IMG/VR virus record: IMGVR_UViG_3300045988_182866
Source: a virus
Reading direction: 5' to 3' (one strand)
Length of the DNA: 64,000 nucleotides
Shown here: positions 11,235 through 44,194 of the stretch, piece by piece
Layout of the letters: each line of letters starts with the position of its first letter
Position numbering within the stretch: position 1 is the first letter of the stretch
Made by a program: the position numbers and the translations under genes
Notes under the pieces: model-generated
Told to the model about the DNA's origin: nothing
Database searches by the model: none
The model's input: only the letters and a program-made list of their open reading frames with translations

Positions 11235-11250
11235 TTTAAAGGTGATTAAT
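11235..11250 (-). promoter_or_regulatory. conserved 16-mer TTTAAAGGTGATTAAT (minus-strand ATTAATCACCTTTAAA) 27 nt upstream of a minus-strand start codon; exact second copy at 23485..23500
   Basis: Exact 16-nt duplicate found by eye. Both copies sit exactly 27 nt upstream of a minus-strand ATG (11207 and 23457). Confidence 0.35.
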
Positions 11251-11710
11251 TTCCTGCGTATTCAACTAAAAGAACAGAAATATCATGCTTTGTTCGAAAA
11301 TTATACAAAAGATTTTCAAATTCTTTTGGTTTTACTCGTCCTATACCGCATCCCAAAAAAGGCATTACAACAGTATTAAGATGATGAGTGTTCATAACTT
11401 CAAACAAATCGCAAAGAGACAAAGAAATATCTCCCAAATTTGCTATTGAACCAGGATAAAACATGGTTGGAACATTGGCAATCATTTTCCAATTATCTTC
11501 ATCGGACAAATAAAAATAATGGCCTTTACCAATATTAACCATTTTAGAATTACAAGAGTTCTGATAACTCCAGTACATTTCAGGAAATTTATCGGCAAAA
11601 GCTTTTGCAACTCCTGCTCCCATTACTCCGATACAATTGACGGCATTGCAAATTACATCCGCCTTTGTATCAAAGATATTTCCTTTTGTTTTAATAACTT
11701 TAAGAGACAT
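11246..11710 (-). CDS. macro domain protein (ADP-ribose binding / ADP-ribosyl hydrolase fold)
   Basis: 154 aa. ICNAVNCIGVMGAGVAKAF matches the macro-domain NAAN...GGGV signature. Confidence 0.6.
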   Translation of the reverse strand: MSLKVIKTKGNIFDTKADVICNAVNCIGVMGAGVAKAFADKFPEMYWSYQNSCNSKMVNIGKGHYFYLSDEDNWKMIANVPTMFYPGSIANLGDISLSLCDLFEVMNTHHLNTVVMPFLGCGIGRVKPKEFENLLYNFRTKHDISVLLVEYAGN

Positions 11711-26853: not shown

Positions 26854-27459
26854 ATTTAATTTGGAATAATCTTCCATCCAAGGAATAATCTTTACGTTTA
26901 ATCCAAGTTTATTTTTCATTACCTTAATATCTCCAGATAATTCATAAGCTAAATCTTCACTAAAGTAAATTGTTTTAATAAGATTAGAAAGATTATATTT
27001 TGGAGGAAGTTTAATAGATTTACTTTTAGAATAAAGTCGATCCTCCATTTCATTACCTTTATGAGCACGGCCATAAGGCTGGTAATCAATAGCTGTAATC
27101 TGAGTATTTCTTAAATTAGACAATGCCTCTTTATCAAATTCAACAATAACAGAAGTATCTGGATCAAAATGATTTTGAATTAATCCAGGCCGTAAAGATC
27201 TTGCAAAACTTCTGGAATAAGGATATTCTTTATTTTTTTTATAAACTAGAGAATTCTGAAGCTTTTTAATATTTTCCTGAGAATCATCCATAACATTATC
27301 GTCAATATCTATATTCTCAAATTTATTATCTGTTAATTCCCATTCTTTATCTCGTAATAAATGAACTAGTTCTTCAATATCCATAACTCGATAAATTGAG
27401 CCTGGACTTTTAGATTCGATTAAAAATTTAGAAAATTTTAAATGTTGGGATAGCTTCAT
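26830..27459 (-). CDS. hypothetical protein
   Basis: 209-aa ORF in the minus-strand string downstream of the terminase. Confidence 0.3.
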   Translation of the reverse strand: MKLSQHLKFSKFLIESKSPGSIYRVMDIEELVHLLRDKEWELTDNKFENIDIDDNVMDDSQENIKKLQNSLVYKKNKEYPYSRSFARSLRPGLIQNHFDPDTSVIVEFDKEALSNLRNTQITAIDYQPYGRAHKGNEMEDRLYSKSKSIKLPPKYNLSNLIKTIYFSEDLAYELSGDIKVMKNKLGLNVKIIPWMEDYSKLNLAMMKRL

Positions 27460-28061
27460 ATAATCAATTTATCGTCAGGAATTTTTGTATACATTTGGGC
27501 AAAGGCAAAAGCACAAGAACATTCAATAGGTCCTGTTTGAGAATAGTCATAAGAAAATCCATTTAAGGAAGTTGGAAAGGCTTCCGAAAAGATGAATTGA
27601 ATCTTTGGCTTATTATATTCATCTAAGCCAATTGCACTAACATTTGTCCAATATGACTCTAATCTAAAATAATCTTGTTTAGAAATTAAATTATTTGGGT
27701 CAGGAATTGCGAGTTTCTCATCATGAATAAGATTTAACCAATTATAAAGAGTAATATAGTTAGTATAATCTCCATTAATCTCAAATGAAAAAGTTAATAA
27801 AGGAAATGGTTCTTTAGAATGAGAGGAAACATAAACATTTCCAGAAGCATATCGTTGTGAAATTGCTTTAATGGTAATATCAGGAATTTTAATTTTACTA
27901 AGAGCAAACTGAACTGAATTTTTATTAACAGATTCTTTGGAAATATTAAGAGTTGTCTTATTCAGACGCATTAAAGGCTGTGGCATATTAAAAAGAAATA
28001 TCCACTTATCTGCCCTTGTCTTATTAAGGGGACTTTGAATAATCGGTTGTTCAGTATTCAT
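27456..28061 (-). CDS. hypothetical protein (possible virion protein)
   Basis: 201-aa ORF translationally coupled to its neighbours. Confidence 0.3.
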   Translation of the reverse strand: MNTEQPIIQSPLNKTRADKWIFLFNMPQPLMRLNKTTLNISKESVNKNSVQFALSKIKIPDITIKAISQRYASGNVYVSSHSKEPFPLLTFSFEINGDYTNYITLYNWLNLIHDEKLAIPDPNNLISKQDYFRLESYWTNVSAIGLDEYNKPKIQFIFSEAFPTSLNGFSYDYSQTGPIECSCAFAFAQMYTKIPDDKLII

Positions 28062-29082: not shown

Positions 29083-31020
29083 TTAGAACCAGTTAGGTAA
29101 ATCTCTGACACCAAATTGGTCAAAGCTATTCGGAAGGGTAATCTGGTTTCGATATTCATCCAAACTAAGAGTTTCTCCAAAATCTAAAAGATTCATTTGC
29201 TTTTTTTGTTTAAAATCATTACTTGATGTAATAGTATTAATTTGGCCTTTACTAAATCCGGCCATTACTCCGATAAATGGAGATTCCATATCCAACTCTT
29301 TATAAAGAGTATTAGCCCAATCAGTCCTGGGATCCATTTCCCATCGTTTTTTAATAACAAGAGGAATATTATTGACGTCTTTTTTATCAACAATAAGATA
29401 ATTGTTAATTACTTTCTTATAAAGAGCAAAAAGACTCCAACATAAAGCCAAAACATGGTCATCATGGAATCCTGGTTGAGCACACCATCGAATATTATTA
29501 CTTTGATTACGAATGCAAGTAAATGTTCTTAATTCTTCAATAGTTTTTTTATCATAAATTTTGACAACTCGACGGTCATGAATATAATATTTCATATTAT
29601 GAACGCCTTCGCTTTTTGTCACTCTATTGGTAATAATACCCGGGAGAACTTTTCGCCCTGGGGTTTGCGGCCCGTATCCTGAACCGAAATTAATAAATCT
29701 CGGATAATTATTTTCATAGAACAGCTTTTCACAAACATGGGCCCCAGGGCCGTTTCGTTCAACTGACATAATAGGAGAATACCACTGTTTTGCAATTTCC
29801 AAGACTTTAGCCGCAAAAGTAGTAATATCCATTGTATTAGTTGAATATCTGGCAGCCTGCTCAATATTCAAGGGGTCAGTAATATCAAAAATTTGAATAA
29901 CTGAATAGTCTTGTCCTACGCCTTCAGAAGTATCAACTCCCATGGTATAGATTTTTTCGGAATCAGGTTTTTTCCAAATATAATAATTTCCATCTTCTAA
30001 TATGTTTAATGGTTCAATTAATTCTTTTGTGAACTTATCAAACATGTTAGGATCAAATGGAGAGCCCGAATTATTAAGAAACCTACATTCATATTCTTGA
30101 GTAAATGTATCATAGCTCATTGTGCTCAATTCAGCATCTTTCCAAGCTTCTGTTCTGCCAGGGAAATCAAACCAAAAAGCTTTCTCTAACGCAAAATCGT
30201 TTCTTCCTTCTTCCGCCTTAGATACCAATTCATGAAATTTATTACCTACGCCCTTAGGAGTAGATGCCACAATAAGCTTTGCATTTTTATTATTATTAAA
30301 ACGAGAAGCAAGAGTAGGAGTAACAGCAGCCCAGAAAGCTTCAGCATCTTTAGGAGGAATAATAGCAAACTCGTCAAGAAGAAGAACATCAATAGCTAAA
30401 CCACGAATAGCATCAGGTGAAGTAGCTGATGTTAAGATACGAGAACCATTCGCTAATGTAAAGAATGTTTTATTAAATTCAAGAACACCGCCCTTAATCC
30501 AGTTTTCCATCATTTGGAAAGCCAGACGAACACGCATAAAAATTTCGGTTGCTGTTGACTGTTTGTTAGCGACAATACATACAGTTTGGTCAGGATGAAA
30601 TACTGCAACCCATGTAGCAACGATAGTCATTAAGGTCGTATTATGGGAAAGAATACCGTTGGCATAATATAAATGATTTGAATCTTTAGCTAATTCAAAA
30701 TCATACATATTTTCCCATTCAGATGTTGCAATTACATCAACAACTTTATCTCCTCCATAATTAGTTGCAATATCTTCGCCAAGTGAATCTTTAGCAAAGA
30801 CTTGCTCATCTTTCATAGTAATTAAAATATGATTATCGGCACATTCGAGAATATTACCTGTCTTGAATTTAATAATATATTTTTGATAAGGGACAGTTTT
30901 ATTAATAGTTTTAATATCTGTCCATTCCTGATTTGAAGAAATTTGCCAATTTGAAGCATCAAGAACTTCTTCAAATTTTCTAAAAATTGTTTTAGATAAA
31001 TCTTTAAATTTTTTAAGCAT
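29083..31020 (-). CDS. large terminase subunit (gp17-like), C-terminal portion: intein C-part (blocks B, F, G) fused to the TerL C-extein (Walker B, nuclease domain)
   Basis: 645 aa. After ...NGILSHN the sequence TTLMTIVATWVAVF...ATSPDAIRGLAIDVLLLDEFA...GVDTSEGVGQDYSVIQIFDITD...FHDDHVLALCWSLFAL aligns with T4 gp17 (GKTTVVAIFLAHFV, ASSPDAVRG...[44 protein letters not shown]). The first ~127 aa carry intein blocks B (GNILECADNHILIT) and F/G (MYDFELAKDSNHLYYANGILSHN). Confidence 0.85.
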   Translation of the reverse strand: MLKKFKDLSKTIFRKFEEVLDASNWQISSNQEWTDIKTINKTVPYQKYIIKFKTGNILECADNHILITMKDEQVFAKDSLGEDIATNYGGDKVVDVIATSEWENMYDFELAKDSNHLYYANGILSHNTTLMTIVATWVAVFHPDQTVCIVANKQSTATEIFMRVRLAFQMMENWIKGGVLEFNKTFFTLANGSRILTSATSPDAIRGLAIDVLLLDEFAIIPPKDAEAFWAAVTPTLASRFNNNKNAKLIVASTPKGVGNKFHELVSKAEEGRNDFALEKAFWFDFPGRTEAWKDAELSTMSYDTFTQEYECRFLNNSGSPFDPNMFDKFTKELIEPLNILEDGNYYIWKKPDSEKIYTMGVDTSEGVGQDYSVIQIFDITDPLNIEQAARYSTNTMDITTFAAKVLEIAKQWYSPIMSVERNGPGAHVCEKLFYENNYPRFINFGSGYGPQTPGRKVLPGIITNRVTKSEGVHNMKYYIHDRRVVKIYDKKTIEELRTFTCIRNQSNNIRWCAQPGFHDDHVLALCWSLFALYKKVINNYLIVDKKDVNNIPLVIKKRWEMDPRTDWANTLYKELDMESPFIGVMAGFSKGQINTITSSNDFKQKKQMNLLDFGETLSLDEYRNQITLPNSFDQFGVRDLPNWF

Positions 31021-31159
31021 TTTTAAAGGTAATTTTGTTAATAAACTTTTTAAGCTTATTTTGAATTTTAATTAATTTAAAAAAGATTCCAACGTTAATC
31101 TTAAAGGATAAATTTAAAGGCTTATAACGCACGCAAATTGGCACACTTGGAGAAAGACA
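30640..31159 (-). mobile_element. mini-intein in the TerL P-loop (between GK and TT), encoded across two overlapping ORFs in different frames; candidate atypical split intein
   Basis: N-extein ends SRQWGK, then Cys (CLSPSVPI..., block A). The C-part ends ...ANGILSHN, then Thr-Thr. Joining the exteins gives SRQWGKTT, the gp17 Walker A. The two ORFs overlap by 8 nt (ATGCTTAA) and their frames differ. Confidence 0.7.
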
Positions 31160-31468
31160 TTTGCCCCACTGACGAGAGCTTATAAGCAGTGTCTTCTTAT
31201 TGCGCTGAATTGTTTTTAAGATTTTTTTCTGTTTTTCAAAAAGGGTAATATGTTCTTTTTGACCGCTTAACGCAGAAATAATATAAAAGTGATTTTCAGC
31301 AAAATAGATAATATCTTTCTTACACCGGGCAATCTCTTTAATCATCGCCGGAGTATAGGTATAAGTTGTAGTATTCTTAGGTAAATTAGGATTATTAAGA
31401 TAATATTCCTCATTTGCTACTACTTCTTCACCCCTAAAATCAATGATCTTTGTAGCTTTTTTAGGCAT
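31013..31468 (-). CDS. large terminase subunit (gp17-like), N-terminal portion up to the Walker A Lys, fused to a short intein N-part (48 aa)
   Basis: 151 aa. YTPAMIKEIARCKKDIIYFAENHFYII...KKTLLISSRQWGK aligns with T4 gp17 [27 protein letters not shown]...RMTVCNLSRQLGKTT; then CLSPSVPICV... follows. Confidence 0.8.
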   Translation of the reverse strand: MPKKATKIIDFRGEEVVANEEYYLNNPNLPKNTTTYTYTPAMIKEIARCKKDIIYFAENHFYIISALSGQKEHITLFEKQKKILKTIQRNKKTLLISSRQWGKCLSPSVPICVRYKPLNLSFKINVGIFFKLIKIQNKLKKFINKITFKNA

Positions 31469-31471
31469 AAC

Positions 31472-32071
31472 TTACAGAATTTTATTGATGAAAGAATCAG
31501 GATGAATCAAAGTATTAGTAACATTCATAATCAATAATTCTTTAAAAGTACTATTGATAATAGTATAAAGATATTCATCCATAGAATGAGCATTATCAAT
31601 AATAATCAAATCATAGGTTTGTCCTCTTAGAGCAAATTCTGCAGAGTTCATTGATTTAAACCTAATAAGAGAATTATTACCGAAATAAAATTCAGATTTA
31701 TTGTAATCACGAACACAACCTATAATTTCATTGTTAAGTTCATTTAATGTATCAAGAGCAATACCCAATTCATTAATCATTAAATCAGCCATTTTCCTAT
31801 TCTCAGTAATGAATAAAATTCTGGAATTTGGATTATAATAAGCCTGGGCAAGAGCAAGGGCGATACAAGTTACTGATTTATTAGACTTTCGATTATCAGA
31901 AGATAATAATAATTTTAAACGTTTTTTATTAGACCGCTTAAGAACTTCCATAGTGAATAAAGAAGATTCAAATGGAATTGCCCGTTCTTTGGAATTAATC
32001 ACAAAAATTTCATTTTCATTTAAGGCATCTTCTAAAGCTTTGATGATATTTTCATTATTAAACATATACAA
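31472..32071 (-). CDS. TerL ATPase-core paralog with degenerate Walker A and Walker B Glu->Asn (predicted catalytically inactive)
   Basis: 199 aa. ...KRLKLLLSSDNRKSNKSVTCIALALAQA... sits where TerL has SRQxGKTT; SMNSAEFALRGQTYDLIIIDNAH parallels TerL ATSPDAIRGLAIDVLLLDEFA in the downstream gene, with DN in place of DE. Confidence 0.55.
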   Translation of the reverse strand: MYMFNNENIIKALEDALNENEIFVINSKERAIPFESSLFTMEVLKRSNKKRLKLLLSSDNRKSNKSVTCIALALAQAYYNPNSRILFITENRKMADLMINELGIALDTLNELNNEIIGCVRDYNKSEFYFGNNSLIRFKSMNSAEFALRGQTYDLIIIDNAHSMDEYLYTIINSTFKELLIMNVTNTLIHPDSFINKIL

Positions 32072-32119
32072 TTAATTAAAGCCCTGGAACTGATTTAATT
32101 CCTTTAAATATTAAACATA

Positions 32120-33682
32120 ATGATGAAAAGCTCTAATATTGGAGGCATAGCTGAAGAAATTTTCGCTGAAAGTTATGGTACAGTTGGTAATTTAGTACCT
32201 GAAGAACCAATTACTAAGAAAATTCCTTGTCCTGAAAAGACTAAAAATAAAGTAAAAATTCCGCCTCGTTTCAAAGGTTCTCCTTTCGATTCTTCTGTTG
32301 AAAAGGATTACTATAAAAATGAAACAAATTGTTTTGATGAAGACGAAGAGGACTTTGAAACAGATGATCAGGAAATTCAAGATGTTATTCTTCAGCAATA
32401 TGAAGGTATTGGTCCTAGGACTAATGGAATGGCATTATCTGATATTCTCGGTTATTTCTCTGTTTCCGATGGAGTTTATCCTAAGAACGAAGTCATGCGA
32501 GTTCTTCAAGATATGATTAATAAGAATATTCTTGAAATTGATCCTATCACCAAAAAGATCTTTAAATCTTTAGAAGAAGATGAAGAGGATGAATTTATTA
32601 CTCCTGAAGAAATTACCGATGAAGAAAAAGGAAATGATTTAATTGATTCTGTTATTGACTATTTTGAACAATCTACTTCCGGTTCTGTAGGAGGTATTAA
32701 CCTTTCTCAAATCTTAAAGGACGTAACCTCTAATACCGGAGCTTCCCGAGCTGAAGTAGTTCAGGCTATCAAAGACCTGCTTCAAAGTAATATTCTTAAA
32801 AAGGGTGTTACTGAGGGTACTATCATTTTAAATTCTACTTCCAAAACAGATGAAGTAGAAGAAGATGCAGAAGGACCTATTCCAGTTATTAATCAAGAAA
32901 CCCCCGAAACACTTCGAGCTAAAGGCTGGACGGAAACAGCACCTGGTATTTTTGTTGGTCCTGACGGCGTTCAAAAATATGCTTTAACTGGAGAATCATA
33001 TAACACTAAGCTAAATAAACATATGAGTAATTTTAACGATGATAATTTCAGCAAGTTATGCGAAGAATTTGAAAAAGAATTCGATAAGGTGGATGTGAGT
33101 CTTGACGATTCTACTGAAGGTCTTGATGAATTTGCTGATGAAACTGAAGTATCTGATGAAGAAGGCGAAACTATGACCATGGAAATTCCTCGTCACCTGG
33201 TTGATGCTATTACAGAACTTGCAGCTATTTTTAGTGATTCTGAAGATGAACCTGTCGATGATCTTGCTACTGATGAAGAAGCTACAATTGACCTTATGGA
33301 TGGAGACGGCGATGAAGCCGAAGTTTCTGTTGAAGAAACTGATGAAGATGAAGAAGGTTGCGAAGATGATGAAGAATTCAACTTTGACGAAGACGAAGAA
33401 ACCATTGCTGATACGGCTGGTTCTATCTTTGATGCTTCTTTTGGACCTAATGAAGGCGGAGCTTCTGTAACCAAGGCTTCTACTACTCTTCCGGAAAAAC
33501 GCCGTAAGCCGATTGAAGGAGCTTATAAGCCCAATGCCGGCGGACAAGCTTATGATGCTTCTACCCGCAATGGCGGTGCTTCTGTGACTAAGGCTACTCC
33601 TGCTTTTGATAAGTCTGGAAAGCCAGTTGCTTCTAAGGTAAGTCAGAAAGCCAAATCTAAGAATTCTATTTTTGATTTGTAA
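32120..33682 (+). CDS. poly-acidic low-complexity protein with C-terminal GGASVTKA repeats
   Basis: 520 aa. Long D/E runs (EEDEEDEF, ETDEDEEGCEDDEEFNFDEDEE). GGASVTKAS/T occurs twice near the C-terminus, ahead of a basic tail. Confidence 0.5.
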   Translation: MMKSSNIGGIAEEIFAESYGTVGNLVPEEPITKKIPCPEKTKNKVKIPPRFKGSPFDSSVEKDYYKNETNCFDEDEEDFETDDQEIQDVILQQYEGIGPRTNGMALSDILGYFSVSDGVYPKNEVMRVLQDMINKNILEIDPITKKIFKSLEEDEEDEFITPEEITDEEKGNDLIDSVIDYFEQSTSGSVGGINLSQILKDVTSNTGASRAEVVQAIKDLLQSNILKKGVTEGTIILNSTSKTDEVEEDAEGPIPVINQETPETLRAKGWTETAPGIFVGPDGVQKYALTGESYNTKLNKHMSNFNDDNFSKLCEEFEKEFDKVDVSLDDSTEGLDEFADETEVSDEEGETMTMEIPRHLVDAITELAAIFSDSEDEPVDDLATDEEATIDLMDGDGDEAEVSVEETDEDEEGCEDDEEFNFDEDEETIADTAGSIFDASFGPNEGGASVTKASTTLPEKRRKPIEGAYKPNAGGQAYDASTRNGGASVTKATPAFDKSGKPVASKVSQKAKSKNSIFDL

Positions 33683-33793: not shown

Positions 33794-34402
33794 TTAATTA
33801 ATCCATCTAATTATTGGTTCATTTTTTATCTCCTTTTGCCACACATACATACAATAAGCAGCCGCACCACTATTTTTAAAATTATCGGTTCCTTTACCGC
33901 AACCTTGCCTGTTTACATATACATATACATATTTTGGTGGATATTTTTTAAAAAAATTATAACGTTTGGCTGATTCAAGAAAGGTGAGTTTCATAAACAT
34001 AATGACTAAACCATTATTTTTAACAGTTTTTATTGCTTTTTCTGTAATTTCAACTGCATATCTGTAAGGAGGATTTGTAAAAATACAATCAAATTGATTA
34101 TCCCATTTATTAGTTTTTAAAAAATCAATACCAGTTTCTTCCCCATATCCTCTGTCAATTAAATCAGAAGAATAAACTGAATATCCATTTTCTTTTAATA
34201 TTTTGGATATCGAACCTATACCACAGCATGGTTCTAAAATATTATTAGGAATTATTAAATTAGTATTTTTAGCTGCTTTTAAAAATAATTTTATTGATTC
34301 AGGATGAGTACAATAAAAATCATATTCTTCTACTTCAATCTCCTTTTTTCGATGATTTACTGAATAAAATCCTGAATTTCCGCCTGTCCAATCTTTAATC
34401 AT
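33794..34402 (-). CDS. orphan DNA amino-methyltransferase (N6-adenine or N4-cytosine; NPPY class)
   Basis: 202 aa. Motif I NNILEPCCGIGSISKIL (AdoMet binding); motif IV IFTNPPYR. No adjacent restriction endonuclease gene. Confidence 0.7.
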   Translation of the reverse strand: MIKDWTGGNSGFYSVNHRKKEIEVEEYDFYCTHPESIKLFLKAAKNTNLIIPNNILEPCCGIGSISKILKENGYSVYSSDLIDRGYGEETGIDFLKTNKWDNQFDCIFTNPPYRYAVEITEKAIKTVKNNGLVIMFMKLTFLESAKRYNFFKKYPPKYVYVYVNRQGCGKGTDNFKNSGAAAYCMYVWQKEIKNEPIIRWIN

Positions 34403-35701: not shown

Positions 35702-35737
35702 AAAAAAGCTGAATCATTAATTTGATTCAGCTTTTTT
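35702..35737. terminator. conserved hairpin family, copy A (aaaaaagctgaatca-ttaatt-tgattcagctttttt)
   Basis: Perfect stem flanked by A-run and T-run; lies between convergent genes and overlaps the last codons of 35717..36814. Confidence 0.5.
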
Positions 35738-36814
35738 AATCGCTTCTTGAATTAAAAGTTTTATTTGATCTTTATTTTTCTTCCATTTACTTTCCCAAAT
35801 TTCTATCAATGTAATTCCCCTTTCAATACATTGATTTCTTTTATTTTCATGATAACCCAGATTTCGATCTTCGTGTAATTTATGCCAGTAATCTCCATTA
35901 TATTCAAAGGCTAATTTTAATTCAGGGAGATAAATATCAAGCTCTAATTGATTATCAAGTTGATTTCTAGAATTTTTTATAATTTTTCTTGAATATATCG
36001 AATTAATATATTCAAAAAGTTCTTTTTCACCTTTAGATCTTTTCGAAGCTTTTACACATTTAATACAGCCACTTCCATTTAAATGAATATATGCTCTTTG
36101 TCGAAAGACACCATGCCTTGGACAAATAATATTCACATAATCACGAGCACTTTTATATTCAACTCTTGAATAATCATATTTGTCTCCATGAACTTCTTGA
36201 GCTCTTTTAATAAATTCTTCAGTTGTTAAAAATTGCTTTTCTCTTTTACATTCTGGACATTCATTGCCTTGTAAATGTGACCCTGCATGTTGTCGAAATA
36301 ATCCATGCTTAGGACATATTATTGTTATATGATTTTTTACGCCATTATAAATCACTTTAGAATAATCATAATAATTTCCATGCACTTTTTTAGCTTTTTC
36401 AATAAACTCTTCTCTTGATAAAAGATCTTTTATTTTAGCACAATAAGGACATCCACTTCCATTTAAATGGCTGCCAGCCATTTGTTCAAATTTATGCCCG
36501 CATTTATTACAAATAATCCAAATTTTTGATTTACAATTTACGTATATCGATATTGAATAATTATACTTATCACCATGAACTTTTCTTGCTTTTTCTATAA
36601 ATTTTTCTGTTGTTAACTGTGCCGTGGGAATACATTTAGGACATCCACATCCTCTTAAATGTTCTGATGCTTTTTGCCAAAAATATCCATTCTCAGGACA
36701 ACCAATTTCTATTTTTGCAAGACTACTTTTATATTCAACTCTTGAATAATCATATTTGTCACCATGTATTTCTTTAGCCCTTTGTATAAATTCTTCAGTT
36801 GTTAGCTTTTTCAT
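35717..36814 (-). CDS. freestanding homing-endonuclease-like protein: 5 zinc-ribbon repeats + Vsr/DUF559-like nuclease domain (paralog 4 of 5)
   Basis: 365 aa. Repeats IHGDKYDYSRVEYKS...CPxHGxFxQ...HLxGxGCPxC. C-terminus QLELDIYLPELKLAFEYNGDYWH. Confidence 0.55.
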   Translation of the reverse strand: MKKLTTEEFIQRAKEIHGDKYDYSRVEYKSSLAKIEIGCPENGYFWQKASEHLRGCGCPKCIPTAQLTTEKFIEKARKVHGDKYNYSISIYVNCKSKIWIICNKCGHKFEQMAGSHLNGSGCPYCAKIKDLLSREEFIEKAKKVHGNYYDYSKVIYNGVKNHITIICPKHGLFRQHAGSHLQGNECPECKREKQFLTTEEFIKRAQEVHGDKYDYSRVEYKSARDYVNIICPRHGVFRQRAYIHLNGSGCIKCVKASKRSKGEKELFEYINSIYSRKIIKNSRNQLDNQLELDIYLPELKLAFEYNGDYWHKLHEDRNLGYHENKRNQCIERGITLIEIWESKWKKNKDQIKLLIQEAIKKAESN

Positions 36815-40558: not shown

Positions 40559-41908
40559 ATGGCAATTAAACGACTTACGACAGAAATTTTTATAGAAAGG
40601 GCCAAAGCAAAACACGGTATAGACAGGTATGATTACTCGGCAACCAATTATACCCATTGTAATAATAAAATTATAATCAAGTGTTTAATACATAATTTAA
40701 TATTTGAAACCTACCCCCATAATCATTTAAGAGGGAATGGAGGTTGCCCTCTATGTGCTAAAGAAGGACGATCTTTATCATGGCAATCTTTTTTAGAAAA
40801 AAGCATCGAAGCTCACGGGCAAAATCGATATGATTATTCATATGCTAAAAAAGAGTATAAAGGAACCAAATCAAAAATTACAATAATATGTAAAAAATGT
40901 GGACATAGATTTGTTCAATTACCTTCTAATCATATAAAAGGCCATGGTTGTATAAATTGTGTAAATTTAGCTAAATCATTTGATAAAAATTTCTTTATTA
41001 AAGAGGCAGAAAAGAAACATGGTATTGGGAGATATGATTACTCAAAAATAAAATATAAAAATTCATATACTCCCATTTATATTATTTGTAATAAATGTAA
41101 TAAAAAATTTTATCAGCAGCCACGAATACATTTAAAAGGAATTGGATGTTCTCATTGTTATTATAAAAGTAAAACATTAACTAAGGAAGAATTTATTAAA
41201 AGCGCTGAAGAAATACATGAAAAAGGAAAATATGATTATTCTAATGTAGAATATATACAGTCTAACATTAAGATTAAAATTAAATGTAATAAATGTAATA
41301 ATATTTTTTGGCAATATCCCCATGAACATTTAAAAGCCAAAGGATGCCGAATTTGTGCAATTAAAGATATTACTGATACAAAAGAAACATTTATTAAAAA
41401 GGCAAAGAAAGTTCATAAGGATTTTTATGATTATTCAAGTATAAAATATATAAATTCTCAAACTTTAATTTATATTAATTGTCCAAAACATGGTTTTTTC
41501 GCACAACGGCCAAATGCTCATCTAAGAGGTCATGGATGTCCGAATTGTGCACTCGCTGCACAAAGATCTCGAGGAGAAATAGAACTTGGAGAATTTATTA
41601 AATCAATTTATTCCAATAAAATTTTAAAAAATTCTAAAACACAACTTGGAAATAAAATGGAATTGGATATATATCTTCCTGAATTAAAACTCGCCATTGA
41701 GTATAATGGCGATTATTGGCATAATTTGAAAGAGGCCAAACATCCTGGCTGCCATGAAGATAAAAGAAACCGATGTAAAGAAAGAGGAATTAAACTTATT
41801 GAAGTTTTAGATACGGAATGGCAAAAGAATAAAGATCAAATTAAAGAATCTCTTAAAAAACAAATTGGAGAACTTATCAAAATTAGCACCAAAATAAAAT
41901 CAGGATAA
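40559..41908 (+). CDS. freestanding homing-endonuclease-like protein: 6 zinc-ribbon repeats + Vsr/DUF559-like nuclease domain (paralog 5 of 5)
   Basis: 449 aa. Repeats HGxxRYDYS...C..H...F...P..HL.G.GC..C. C-terminus KMELDIYLPELKLAIEYNGDYWH. Confidence 0.55.
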   Translation: MAIKRLTTEIFIERAKAKHGIDRYDYSATNYTHCNNKIIIKCLIHNLIFETYPHNHLRGNGGCPLCAKEGRSLSWQSFLEKSIEAHGQNRYDYSYAKKEYKGTKSKITIICKKCGHRFVQLPSNHIKGHGCINCVNLAKSFDKNFFIKEAEKKHGIGRYDYSKIKYKNSYTPIYIICNKCNKKFYQQPRIHLKGIGCSHCYYKSKTLTKEEFIKSAEEIHEKGKYDYSNVEYIQSNIKIKIKCNKCNNIFWQYPHEHLKAKGCRICAIKDITDTKETFIKKAKKVHKDFYDYSSIKYINSQTLIYINCPKHGFFAQRPNAHLRGHGCPNCALAAQRSRGEIELGEFIKSIYSNKILKNSKTQLGNKMELDIYLPELKLAIEYNGDYWHNLKEAKHPGCHEDKRNRCKERGIKLIEVLDTEWQKNKDQIKESLKKQIGELIKISTKIKSG

Positions 41909-43627: not shown

Positions 43628-44194
43628 TTATTGAGCTACAGCAACATTAGATATTCCGTCACTTGTATCATAGTACACATAGGCAAAAGTAACGTCGCAA
43701 GTTACTAGCGCACCGCTCCCATCCTCATAGTTAAATGTGATTGGATTAACATTTCTTATGGAAGCATGACGCAAATTATATGTTACTAAAGGATTAAGTT
43801 TTGAGTCAATTGTACTTATCGACACGTATTGATCTGCGCTTGGAAATCTATAATCACCGGTAGATGTTGTATCATTGAAAGTGATTCGAGAAGCCCGTTC
43901 TAATTTCTGGCGCGCTGTTCCTTCGGCATCCATAAAAAATTTAATCGTATATTCAGAGCTGCCGGTATATTTTACCGAGCCTGGATAATGTACTTCAAGC
44001 CCCATGTATTGTTGCGTTTGATTTACAATTTGACGGGCTGGAAGTTGAGTCGCAGTACAATAAATTATTTCATCACTAGTCAAAGCCAAAGCATCAGTAT
44101 TAACGGCTACAAGACGAAAATTAAAGTCTCGTAAGAACTGGCGTTTTTGAGCTTGGGAAATGAAATCACGAATTCCTGGGATATTTCCGTTCAT
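43628..44194 (-). CDS. tail tube protein (gp19-like)
   Basis: 188 aa. Aligns along its length with T4 gp19 (DFNFRLVAV / PNLFQVEI; IYCTATQLPARQIV / FQCKATALPAGIVE; AEGTARQKLERAS / EAHDARQKFVDWQ; ITFNYEDGSGALVTCDVTFAYVYYD / QLDWDSNNEIQTFEVTLALDYWE). Confidence 0.8.
   Translation of the reverse strand: MNGNIPGIRDFISQAQKRQFLRDFNFRLVAVNTDALALTSDEIIYCTATQLPARQIVNQTQQYMGLEVHYPGSVKYTGSSEYTIKFFMDAEGTARQKLERASRITFNDTTSTGDYRFPSADQYVSISTIDSKLNPLVTYNLRHASIRNVNPITFNYEDGSGALVTCDVTFAYVYYDTSDGISNVAVAQ

Follow-up and report, generated by a model that had tools for sequence, protein, structure and literature searches.

The stretch analysed here (the window) comprises 64,000 nt of IMG/VR virus record IMGVR_UViG_3300045988_182866, from an AT-rich genome of ~190-201 kb (31% G+C) that belongs to an uncultivated myovirus of the T4 superfamily; at least one related contig comes from a human gut metagenome. 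On the minus strand of the window, directly upstream of the gene for the large terminase subunit (TerL), lies a small gene for a protein of 197 residues. We found that this protein is a homologue of the ATPase core of TerL, that the catalytic glutamate of Walker B is absent from every member of its family, and that the gene, judged from its pattern of substitutions, is under purifying selection. We propose that it may encode a non-catalytic partner of the packaging terminase. Coordinates are collected in Table 1. Throughout, L numbers denote related loci or contigs and P numbers related proteins; A1 is the alignment of the small-protein family and A2 an alignment of TerL ATPase domains that includes the phage's own TerL.

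An earlier note, made from the sequence alone, had placed the gene at 31472..32071 as an open reading frame (ORF) of 199 aa. This ORF exists, on the minus strand, but it begins with a TTG, and the ATG at 32065 that yields 197 aa is the start used by the gene callers and by all relatives. The stop codon (31472-31474) is followed by GTT and then directly by the ATG of the next gene (TAAGTTATG). The note's position immediately upstream of the terminase gene and on the same strand is borne out, but the TerL gene turns out to be two ORFs split by an intein. The gap between the small gene and TerL measures 2-5 nt in 23 related contigs, and across the core family the small gene is always found 2-36 nt upstream of TerL on the same strand, whether a TerL intein is present or not. 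The 3-nt spacer in the window implies that the small gene and the TerL N-fragment are co-transcribed, and probably translationally coupled. No terminator-like site was found between the small gene and TerL, where scan counts equalled those in shuffled sequence. The promoter of the terminase operon is presumed to lie in the divergent intergenic region on the other side of the small gene; this region holds no recognisable promoter, and its promoter-like matches do not exceed those in shuffles.

The phage's TerL shares 33% identity with the TerLs of Ackermannviridae and of T4-like phages. T4-type genes for the sheath, tail tube, Hc2 neck protein, baseplate hub and wedge and a DNA polymerase clamp loader (PHROG 168) are also present. 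The two TerL ORFs overlap by 8 nt (ATGCTTAA). The intein sits inside the TerL P-loop, with the junctions SRQWGK/CLSP and GILSHN/TTLMT, and the C-extein carries the rest of the ATPase together with the nuclease domain. Joined, the exteins amount to 621 aa, compared to 622 aa for the unsplit TerL of L007. The split intein is atypical in its short N-fragment (48 aa, with a C-fragment of 127 aa), a layout that resembles the short-N split inteins AceL-TerL and GOS-TerL (PMC11766414). Three states of TerL occur among the related loci: in L007/L008 it is unsplit and has no intein; in L009 and L014 it is split, and a free-standing endonuclease gene lies between its halves; in the window, L001, L015 and L016 it is split and the endonuclease is missing. 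The second state, in which the endonuclease has 371-377 aa and belongs to DUF559/MTES_1575, corresponds to the 'fractured gene' layout described by Dassa et al. 2009 (PMC2677866). The small gene stands beside TerL in all three states and is thus independent of the intein.

Profile-profile comparison (hhalign) of A1 with A2 reproduced the parallel with the TerL ATPase subdomain that the earlier note had drawn by hand, with 99.0% probability (E 9e-18) over 133 columns reaching from before Walker A to after Walker B. The TerL-specific motifs RQxGK, NGS.I and S..A.RG are aligned between the small-protein family and TerL, and residues ~16-170 of the small protein correspond to TerL residues ~40-190. 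The N-terminal 40 residues of the family hidden Markov model (HMM) pair with the part of TerL that precedes the adenine-binding motif (vfvinskeraiPfesslftkEvl against YVKIINVDKGLVPFKLYKFQKEMV). Conservation with TerL is highest in FGNNSLIRF; this segment is the strand that precedes the S..A.RG loop, and it contains the A1-invariant positions N130, S132, I134 and F136. The protein ends ~20 residues past the motif III strand, without a C-terminal RNase H-like nuclease domain.

In domain scans of the ORF, Pfam gave ResIII (E 6e-6, 26.7 bits, cut-off 22.5) and TerL_ATPase (PF03354; E 0.014, 15.5 bits, under the cut-off of 23.7), and no match to PF03237 or to the nuclease family Terminase_6C; PHROG gave the TerL family PHROG 7579 (E 9e-4). 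Taken with the profile alignment, these results confirm the ORF as a true homologue of ATPase subdomain I of T4-type TerL.

An exhaustive phmmer/HMMER search over 1.84 billion protein representatives returned the family members P0001, P0006, P0008 and P0010 (98%, 38%, 35% and 30% identical to the window protein), followed by the fragments P0005 and P0007 and then solely by full-length TerLs (P0009, P0011 and P0012, E 1e-5 to 6e-4). Word-indexed protein searches, with the single sequence or with a profile, found the close family only. Scanning IMG/VR with the family alignment gave near-identical copies and ordinary T4-like TerLs (L020-L024) and no further members, and scanning metagenomes with a further alignment (A3) gave only copies 91-99% identical. 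There was no phmmer match among PDB sequences. In tblastn against 50,697 phage genomes the best matches reached only E ~0.6; 52 of the 54 records hit are Vibrio phages, and nearly all of the 30 matches listed fall on genes annotated as TerL.

When the ORF was compared by BLASTP with the TerL of its own phage, no significant match was obtained, so that the similarity between the two neighbours is detectable only at profile level. TerLs receive 34-52 bits from the family HMM, with 52 bits for a distant T4-like TerL and only 34-42 bits for the neighbouring one. By this measure the small gene is not a recent copy of the TerL beside it.

An AlphaFold2 (AF2) model of the small protein alternates strands and helices throughout (predicted local distance difference test, pLDDT, 70.5, i.e. 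moderate confidence only; predicted template modelling score, pTM, 0.74), with the degenerate P-loop between a strand at residues 51-56 and a helix at residues 63-77. The structure prediction and comparison that the earlier note had suggested rank TerL ATPase domains first: in a fold search against the PDB all of the 19 best matches are such domains (P74-26, T4, HK97, D6E, phi28, T7), at template modelling (TM) scores of 0.50-0.57 for 16 of them and 0.41 for three Phi-28 gp11 chains. Remodellers of helicase superfamily 2 (SF2) come after the TerLs, with weaker E-values. Matches in the BFVD are likewise mostly TerLs, among them small TerL-like proteins of jumbo phages. The small protein shares both fold and motif order with the T4-type TerL ATPase domain (gp17 N-subdomain I; Terminase_6N/TerL_ATPase; PDB 2o0h, 3cpe, 4znk). 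It differs from T4-type TerL in having no catalytic Glu and a degenerate P-loop with an insertion, and in lacking the first ~40-55 residues, subdomain II and the RNase H-like nuclease.

A role outside packaging has to be weighed at this point, in which the protein would serve DNA metabolism, as a ResIII/SF2 helicase fragment or in the manner of T4 vs.8, and its adjacency to TerL would be incidental. T4 vs.8 is, like the small protein, a TerL-ATPase-domain homologue that stands alone (219 aa; Evans et al. 2026, PMC13601566); unlike it, vs.8 has an intact Walker A (GRQSGKS) and Walker B (IIDE) and lies among early/middle genes, far from gp17. As an orthologue vs.8 was rejected, at only 8 bits to the family profile. 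The position of vs.8 among early genes would fit a role outside packaging, as would the ResIII score above the gathering threshold and the proteins P0010/P0013, which do not adjoin TerL and are found near UvrD-helicase genes. On the other side, TerL adjacency is invariant in all three core-family subclades, every sequence match outside the family is a TerL, TerLs outrank SF2 helicases in the fold search, the TerL-specific motifs align, and there is no helicase domain 2. We consider this explanation improbable. An identity as a ResIII/SF2 helicase was itself rejected, since motifs I and II are degenerate, a second RecA-like domain is absent and TerLs outrank SF2 proteins both in sequence and in fold.

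P0010/P0013 (L012, L013, L025-L028) form a more TerL-like branch of 222 aa, with SRQSGGT and IIDN, whose further neighbours are genes for a WDGH-domain protein and a DUF7666 protein beside that for the UvrD-type helicase. This branch represents a second context for a dead TerL-ATPase-like protein.

Next, we considered the state of the catalytic motifs. The hhalign columns pair RKSNKS of the window protein with RQWGKT of TerL; Lys and Ser are kept, Gly has become Asn, and a 3-residue insertion precedes the motif. The earlier note had described a degeneration from SRQxGKTT to SSDNRKSNKS, which is correct as to degeneracy but overstates its extent: the Lys and the Ser/Thr are retained, and only the Gly is replaced. 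Its reading of the Walker B Glu as Asn holds (DN), and the Mg-binding Asp is kept. Across the family, P-loop and Walker B read NKS and DN in the window clade, GKS and DN in P0004, GKT and NK in P0006, GHT and DN in P0008, and GGT and DN in P0010/P0013. The catalytic Glu is thus gone from every member, the P-loop Gly and Lys are not conserved, and neither is the 'RG' arginine before Walker B. Of the hallmarks of a functional TerL, the window protein has neither a G-K-[ST] Walker A nor a DE Walker B nor the nuclease domain, and it stays below the Pfam TerL thresholds.

From these motifs we infer that loss of ATP hydrolysis is a family trait and that nucleotide binding is not a conserved property of the family. 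The description 'catalytically dead' in the earlier note is likewise a reading of motifs, and the window protein may still bind nucleotide because the P-loop Lys and Ser remain. The protein could accordingly be imagined as a nucleotide-binding regulator, either a switch that stays ATP-bound without hydrolysis or a slow ATPase with a substitute catalytic residue. In ASCE ATPases, exchange of the Walker B Glu for Gln or Asn classically traps ATP-bound states; the window protein keeps the Walker B Asp as well as Lys and Ser of the P-loop, and the P-loops of P0004 (GKS) and P0006 (GKT) are canonical. Nevertheless, P0008 has His and P0010/P0013 have Gly in place of the P-loop Lys, Asn stands for the Walker B Asp in P0006, and in most sequences of the window clade the conserved Gly has become Asn. 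We consider such a regulator improbable.

The small gene is well maintained. The ORF is intact in 23 close contigs, with 197 aa and no stop or frameshift among 12 protein variants, and Nei-Gojobori ratios of non-synonymous to synonymous substitution rates (dN/dS) are 0.08-0.26 for every pair with enough substitutions. Orthologues that are only 35-38% identical keep its length and position in L007/L008 and L009-L011. Across these sister clades TerL is 65-76% identical, which means that the small protein evolves much faster. Fast evolution is typical of TerS-like specificity and regulatory subunits, TerS being the small terminase subunit. These substitution patterns argue that the gene is under purifying selection and not a decaying remnant.

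The earlier note had raised the possibility that the gene is a functionless remnant of a partial TerL duplication, left to decay after intein or homing-endonuclease activity. The setting invites this idea: the adjacent TerL is interrupted by a split intein, relatives carry a free-standing homing endonuclease between its halves, the catalytic motifs are degenerate, and the near-identical pair of window and L016 shows 7.5 non-synonymous against 1.5 synonymous differences, although these counts are tiny. Yet the gene occurs with the same length and in the same place beside the intein-free, unsplit 622-aa TerL of L007/L008, the ORF contains no intein or homing-endonuclease motifs (Pfam), and the family profile scores the neighbouring TerL lower than a distant one. 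With low dN/dS on all informative pairs, and an uninterrupted frame kept across such diverged lineages, we regard this origin as contradicted and a decaying remnant as very improbable.

Two observations on the history of the locus may be added. Between the window and L014, synonymous divergence is 0.84 in the small gene, 0.18 in the TerL C-fragment and 0.34 in the TerL N-extein, and the locus is therefore a mosaic; possible causes are homogenisation of TerL, through recombination or homing-associated co-conversion, and exchange of the small gene. The fragments P0005 and P0007, from short metagenome contigs, consist of the last ~56 family residues, from YDLIIVDNAH onward, each behind an unrelated N-terminus; one carries the name type I restriction endonuclease in its source (JGI), and the other looks like a response-regulator receiver domain. 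In both the junction falls exactly on DLIIVD, and they are probably assembly chimeras at a shared k-mer, possibly real recombinants.

In T4-like phages the slot directly upstream of gp17 (TerL) is that of the small terminase gp16, as seen in L020 and in phage phiM12. In the window and in all related loci this slot is held by the small gene, at a gap of 3 nt in the window and on the strand of TerL. Pfam, PHROG and a dedicated gp16 HMM were all negative, in agreement with the earlier note, which had seen no TerS-like gene there: up to an E of 1, neither Pfam nor PHROGs places the small ORF in a TerS family; PHROG scans detected no TerS family among ~40 further small ORFs of the window; and the gp16 HMM, for which the gp16 of phiM12 and a gp16-like gene from L020 were combined, was run on all ORFs of at least 50 aa and had no match in the window or in 8 related loci. 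T4 gp16 has 164 aa; it stimulates the ATPase of gp17 and inhibits its nuclease. Besides the slot, gp16 shares with the small protein a similar size and an evolution much faster than that of TerL. It differs in that the two have no sequence similarity and that gp16-type TerS has an N-terminal helix-turn-helix (HTH) and a helical oligomerisation core, against the RecA-like alpha/beta fold predicted here, in which the HTH is absent. A role as regulator or as substitute for TerS is plausible. A paper on an 'unusual small terminase' of Sam46, considered as a parallel, concerns an FtsK-gamma fusion and is irrelevant here.

The earlier note did not recognise the arrangement as a described one. This part does not hold, since truncated TerL copies beside TerL are reported in PMC5259590 and tandem TerL homologues without TerS in PMC11273794. 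In the former, Buttimer et al. 2017 describe CBB_274 of Pectobacterium phage vB_PcaM_CBB, a protein with an incomplete gp17 domain encoded directly upstream of the TerL gene CBB_275, and they call this feature common to Rak2-like phages, phiM12 and phiN3. Like the window gene, CBB_274 encodes a homologue of the TerL N-terminal part without nuclease, on the same strand and directly upstream of TerL, with which it overlaps by 14 nt. Its P-loop, as read from the sequence, is SIRGAGLST (K to L) and its Walker B LIIYDS (E to S); these losses of the P-loop Lys and Walker B Glu are not mentioned in the passages of PMC5259590 covered here. Unlike the window protein, CBB_274 has 235 aa and reaches the end of the ATPase domain, and the two have no similarity at BLAST level; the CBB phage has a genome of >350 kb and infects enterobacteria, whereas the window phage is smaller and from the gut. 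The A1 HMM gives 31.7 bits to CBB_274 and 42.5 bits to the CBB TerL.

The Xanthomonas phages XaC1 and XbC2 carry two tandem TerL homologues and no TerS (PMC11273794). Like the window phage, the CBB and Xanthomonas phages are T4-superfamily myoviruses for which gp16 is not reported. In the Sinorhizobium jumbo phage Phosso, gene 344 stands alone and has GRSMGIT (K to I) and FADNAS (E to N).

The closest likeness in size is phiM12 gp17.2 (AB690_gp090), which has 196 aa, ends at the same point of the TerL sequence, a little past motif III, and is encoded directly upstream of gp17 and overlapping its start, in a T4-superfamily myovirus of ~195 kb. The gene order is gp13-gp14-gp15-gp16-gp17.2-gp17, and the 100-149 kb stretch of that genome holds no terminase genes. 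In contrast to the window protein, gp17.2 has an intact Walker A (TGKTT) and Walker B (IDE), and a genuine gp16 lies just upstream, which makes gp17.2 an extra component and not a TerS replacement. Pairwise phmmer gives gp17.2 107 bits to its own TerL compared to 6.3 bits to the window protein, and the A1 HMM gives 24.9 bits to gp17.2 and 39.7 bits to the phiM12 TerL. On these scores gp17.2 is a recent duplicate of its own TerL, and since its Walker motifs are also intact it may not be functionally equivalent to the window protein.

A single lineage of dead TerL copies across these phages was considered and dropped, the cross-scores being mixed and giving no support. The simpler reading of the sequences is that such copies arose independently and repeatedly. 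If a TerL-derived pseudo-ATPase has replaced gp16 in the clade of the window phage, the dead copies of Rak2-like, Atu_ph07-like and Xanthomonas jumbo phages would suggest that this solution arose more than once. The window gene is a further, sequence-unrelated case of a known but functionally uncharacterised kind of truncated TerL.

Based on these data, we propose that the ORF encodes a stand-alone derivative, of ~197 residues, of N-subdomain I of T4-type TerL, spanning the region from before the adenine-binding motif through the P-loop and Walker B to the motif III strand. The protein would not hydrolyse ATP and would share a single late transcript with TerL. As a partner without catalytic activity of its own, it would serve the packaging terminase through TerL-like surfaces (those by which subunits of the ATPase ring contact each other, those that grip DNA, or both), and could in this way regulate the assembly, ATPase or nuclease activity of TerL or help to engage DNA. 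We give an accessory, non-catalytic terminase subunit a probability of about 0.5. More tentatively, and as the less probable step, the role of a gp16-type small terminase may have been taken over in this clade: gp16-type TerS would have been lost, and recruitment or regulation of TerL, possibly with DNA recognition, would fall to a TerL-derived pseudo-ATPase.

Several points weigh against this proposal. The structural model is of moderate confidence, as its pLDDT indicates. The model shows neither HTH nor coiled coil and the protein is mildly acidic (pI 5.8), so that a classical DNA-recognition role is disfavoured. The TerS scans covered 64 kb, about a third of the genome, and a TerS may lie elsewhere in it; TerS proteins are notoriously hard to detect. 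The coexistence of gp16 with a truncated TerL in phiM12 indicates that such copies need not replace TerS. Finally, T4 vs.8 demonstrates that TerL-ATPase-like proteins can sit outside the packaging module.

The T4 vs.8 protein also bears on a possible part in phage-host conflict, with the small protein as a TerL look-alike that blocks or shields from sensors (Avs1-3, Upx) or poisons the terminase of competing phages. The TerL ATPase domain by itself suffices to activate Avs2 and Upx, recognition by Avs2 involves ATP bound in the terminase active site, and EcAvs2 recognises vs.8 (PMC13601566). In the small protein this active site is degraded, and the sequence changes far more rapidly than those of its neighbours, which is common among conflict genes. 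However, dN/dS is well below 1, a TerL decoy has no known precedent, and a look-alike would be no less likely to set off the sensors than to block them. The close linkage with TerL, within a late structural operon, suggests moreover a stoichiometric assembly partner. We therefore judge a role in conflict to be quite improbable, less probable than either nucleotide-binding regulation or a role outside packaging, and retain the accessory terminase subunit as the preferred explanation.

The surroundings of the terminase genes are partly conserved and partly variable. At every core-family locus the small gene lies between TerL and a divergent gene for a very acidic protein (519-546 aa). In the window this protein has 520 aa, a pI of 4.1, 122 Asp+Glu, a basic tail and two winged-helix-looking repeats (weak Pfam matches to TnsA_C and DnaD_N), and its synteny is kept in all relatives. 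Beyond it are three mobile-looking genes, one for a DNA methyltransferase (PHROG 799) and two for multi-repeat DUF723/HNH endonucleases. The methyltransferase is found in the window, L004 and L016 and is absent from L001-L003; the endonuclease genes differ between contigs in number and position. Two tail-tube paralogues (both PHROG 45) are ~16 kb apart, one of them directly downstream of the terminase genes. An 88-nt tRNA-Asp was called inside a phosphatase-like ORF and is probably a false positive.

Table 1. Coordinates of the terminase locus, of other features of the window, and of genes in related or compared phages (window positions unless a locus is named).
Feature	Coordinates	Strand	Basis
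TerL-ATPase-like pseudo-enzyme, putative, coding sequence, 197 aa (stop codon included)	31472..32065	-	ORF list, 23 intact contigs, hhalign, fold search, dN/dS
Alternative TTG start (199-aa product)	32071	-	ORF list
Degenerate Walker A/P-loop SSDNRKSNKS, residues 55-64	31874..31903	-	hhalign columns, family alignment
Walker B remnant DLIIIDNAH, residues 152-160	31586..31612	-	family alignment, hhalign
FGNNSLIRF, best-conserved segment vs TerL (F..NGSRI)	31658..31684	-	A1 alignment, hhalign
3-nt spacer (TAA GTT ATG), small-gene stop to TerL N-fragment start	31469..31471	-	sequence
Divergent intergenic region, small gene to acidic 520-aa gene	32066..32119	.	sequence, promoter scan
TerL N-fragment, 151 aa: N-extein of 103 aa ending SRQWGK, 48-aa N-intein fragment (31016..31159)	31013..31468	-	ORFs, domain scans
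TerL C-fragment, 645 aa: 127-aa C-intein fragment (30640..31020, ending SHN), C-extein (TTLMT...)	29083..31020	-	ORFs, domain scans
Acidic 520-aa protein	32120..33682	+	
Mobile-looking gene	33794..34402	-	
Mobile-looking gene	35717..36814	-	
Mobile-looking gene	40559..41908	+	
Tail-tube paralogue	27456..28061	-	PHROG 45
Tail-tube paralogue	43628..44194	-	PHROG 45
tRNA-Asp, probably a false positive (inside ORF 11246..11710)	11453..11540	-	ARAGORN
Split TerL, related loci	L009 3740..7226; L014 3619..7302		
CBB_274, Pectobacterium phage vB_PcaM_CBB	L029 32177..32884		
Phosso gene 344, 281 aa, Sinorhizobium jumbo phage (depositor annotation 'terminase small subunit')	L030 2884..3729		

Nearly every TerL is assumed to have a TerS as its partner, hard as this is to find, and the annotations of many large phages state 'no small terminase found'. 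Genome papers mention the truncated copies next to TerL only as oddities. Because one such copy is under purifying selection, with a conserved loss of the catalytic Glu, and the same loss is seen in CBB_274 and Phosso gene 344, these copies seem less a curiosity of annotation than a non-catalytic part of the packaging module that selection maintains. They may also be relevant to immune sensing, since the TerL ATPase domain is exactly what Avs2 and Upx recognise. If the protein of the window regulates or replaces TerS, a pseudo-enzyme subunit would be added to a textbook motor and some of the 'missing' TerS genes would be explained; if gp16 has indeed been replaced, small terminases would gain a new structural class, one that arose when the ATPase core of the motor itself was duplicated. 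The recurrent and selected loss of catalysis in TerL copies beside TerL thus offers a testable lead on the 'missing' small terminases.

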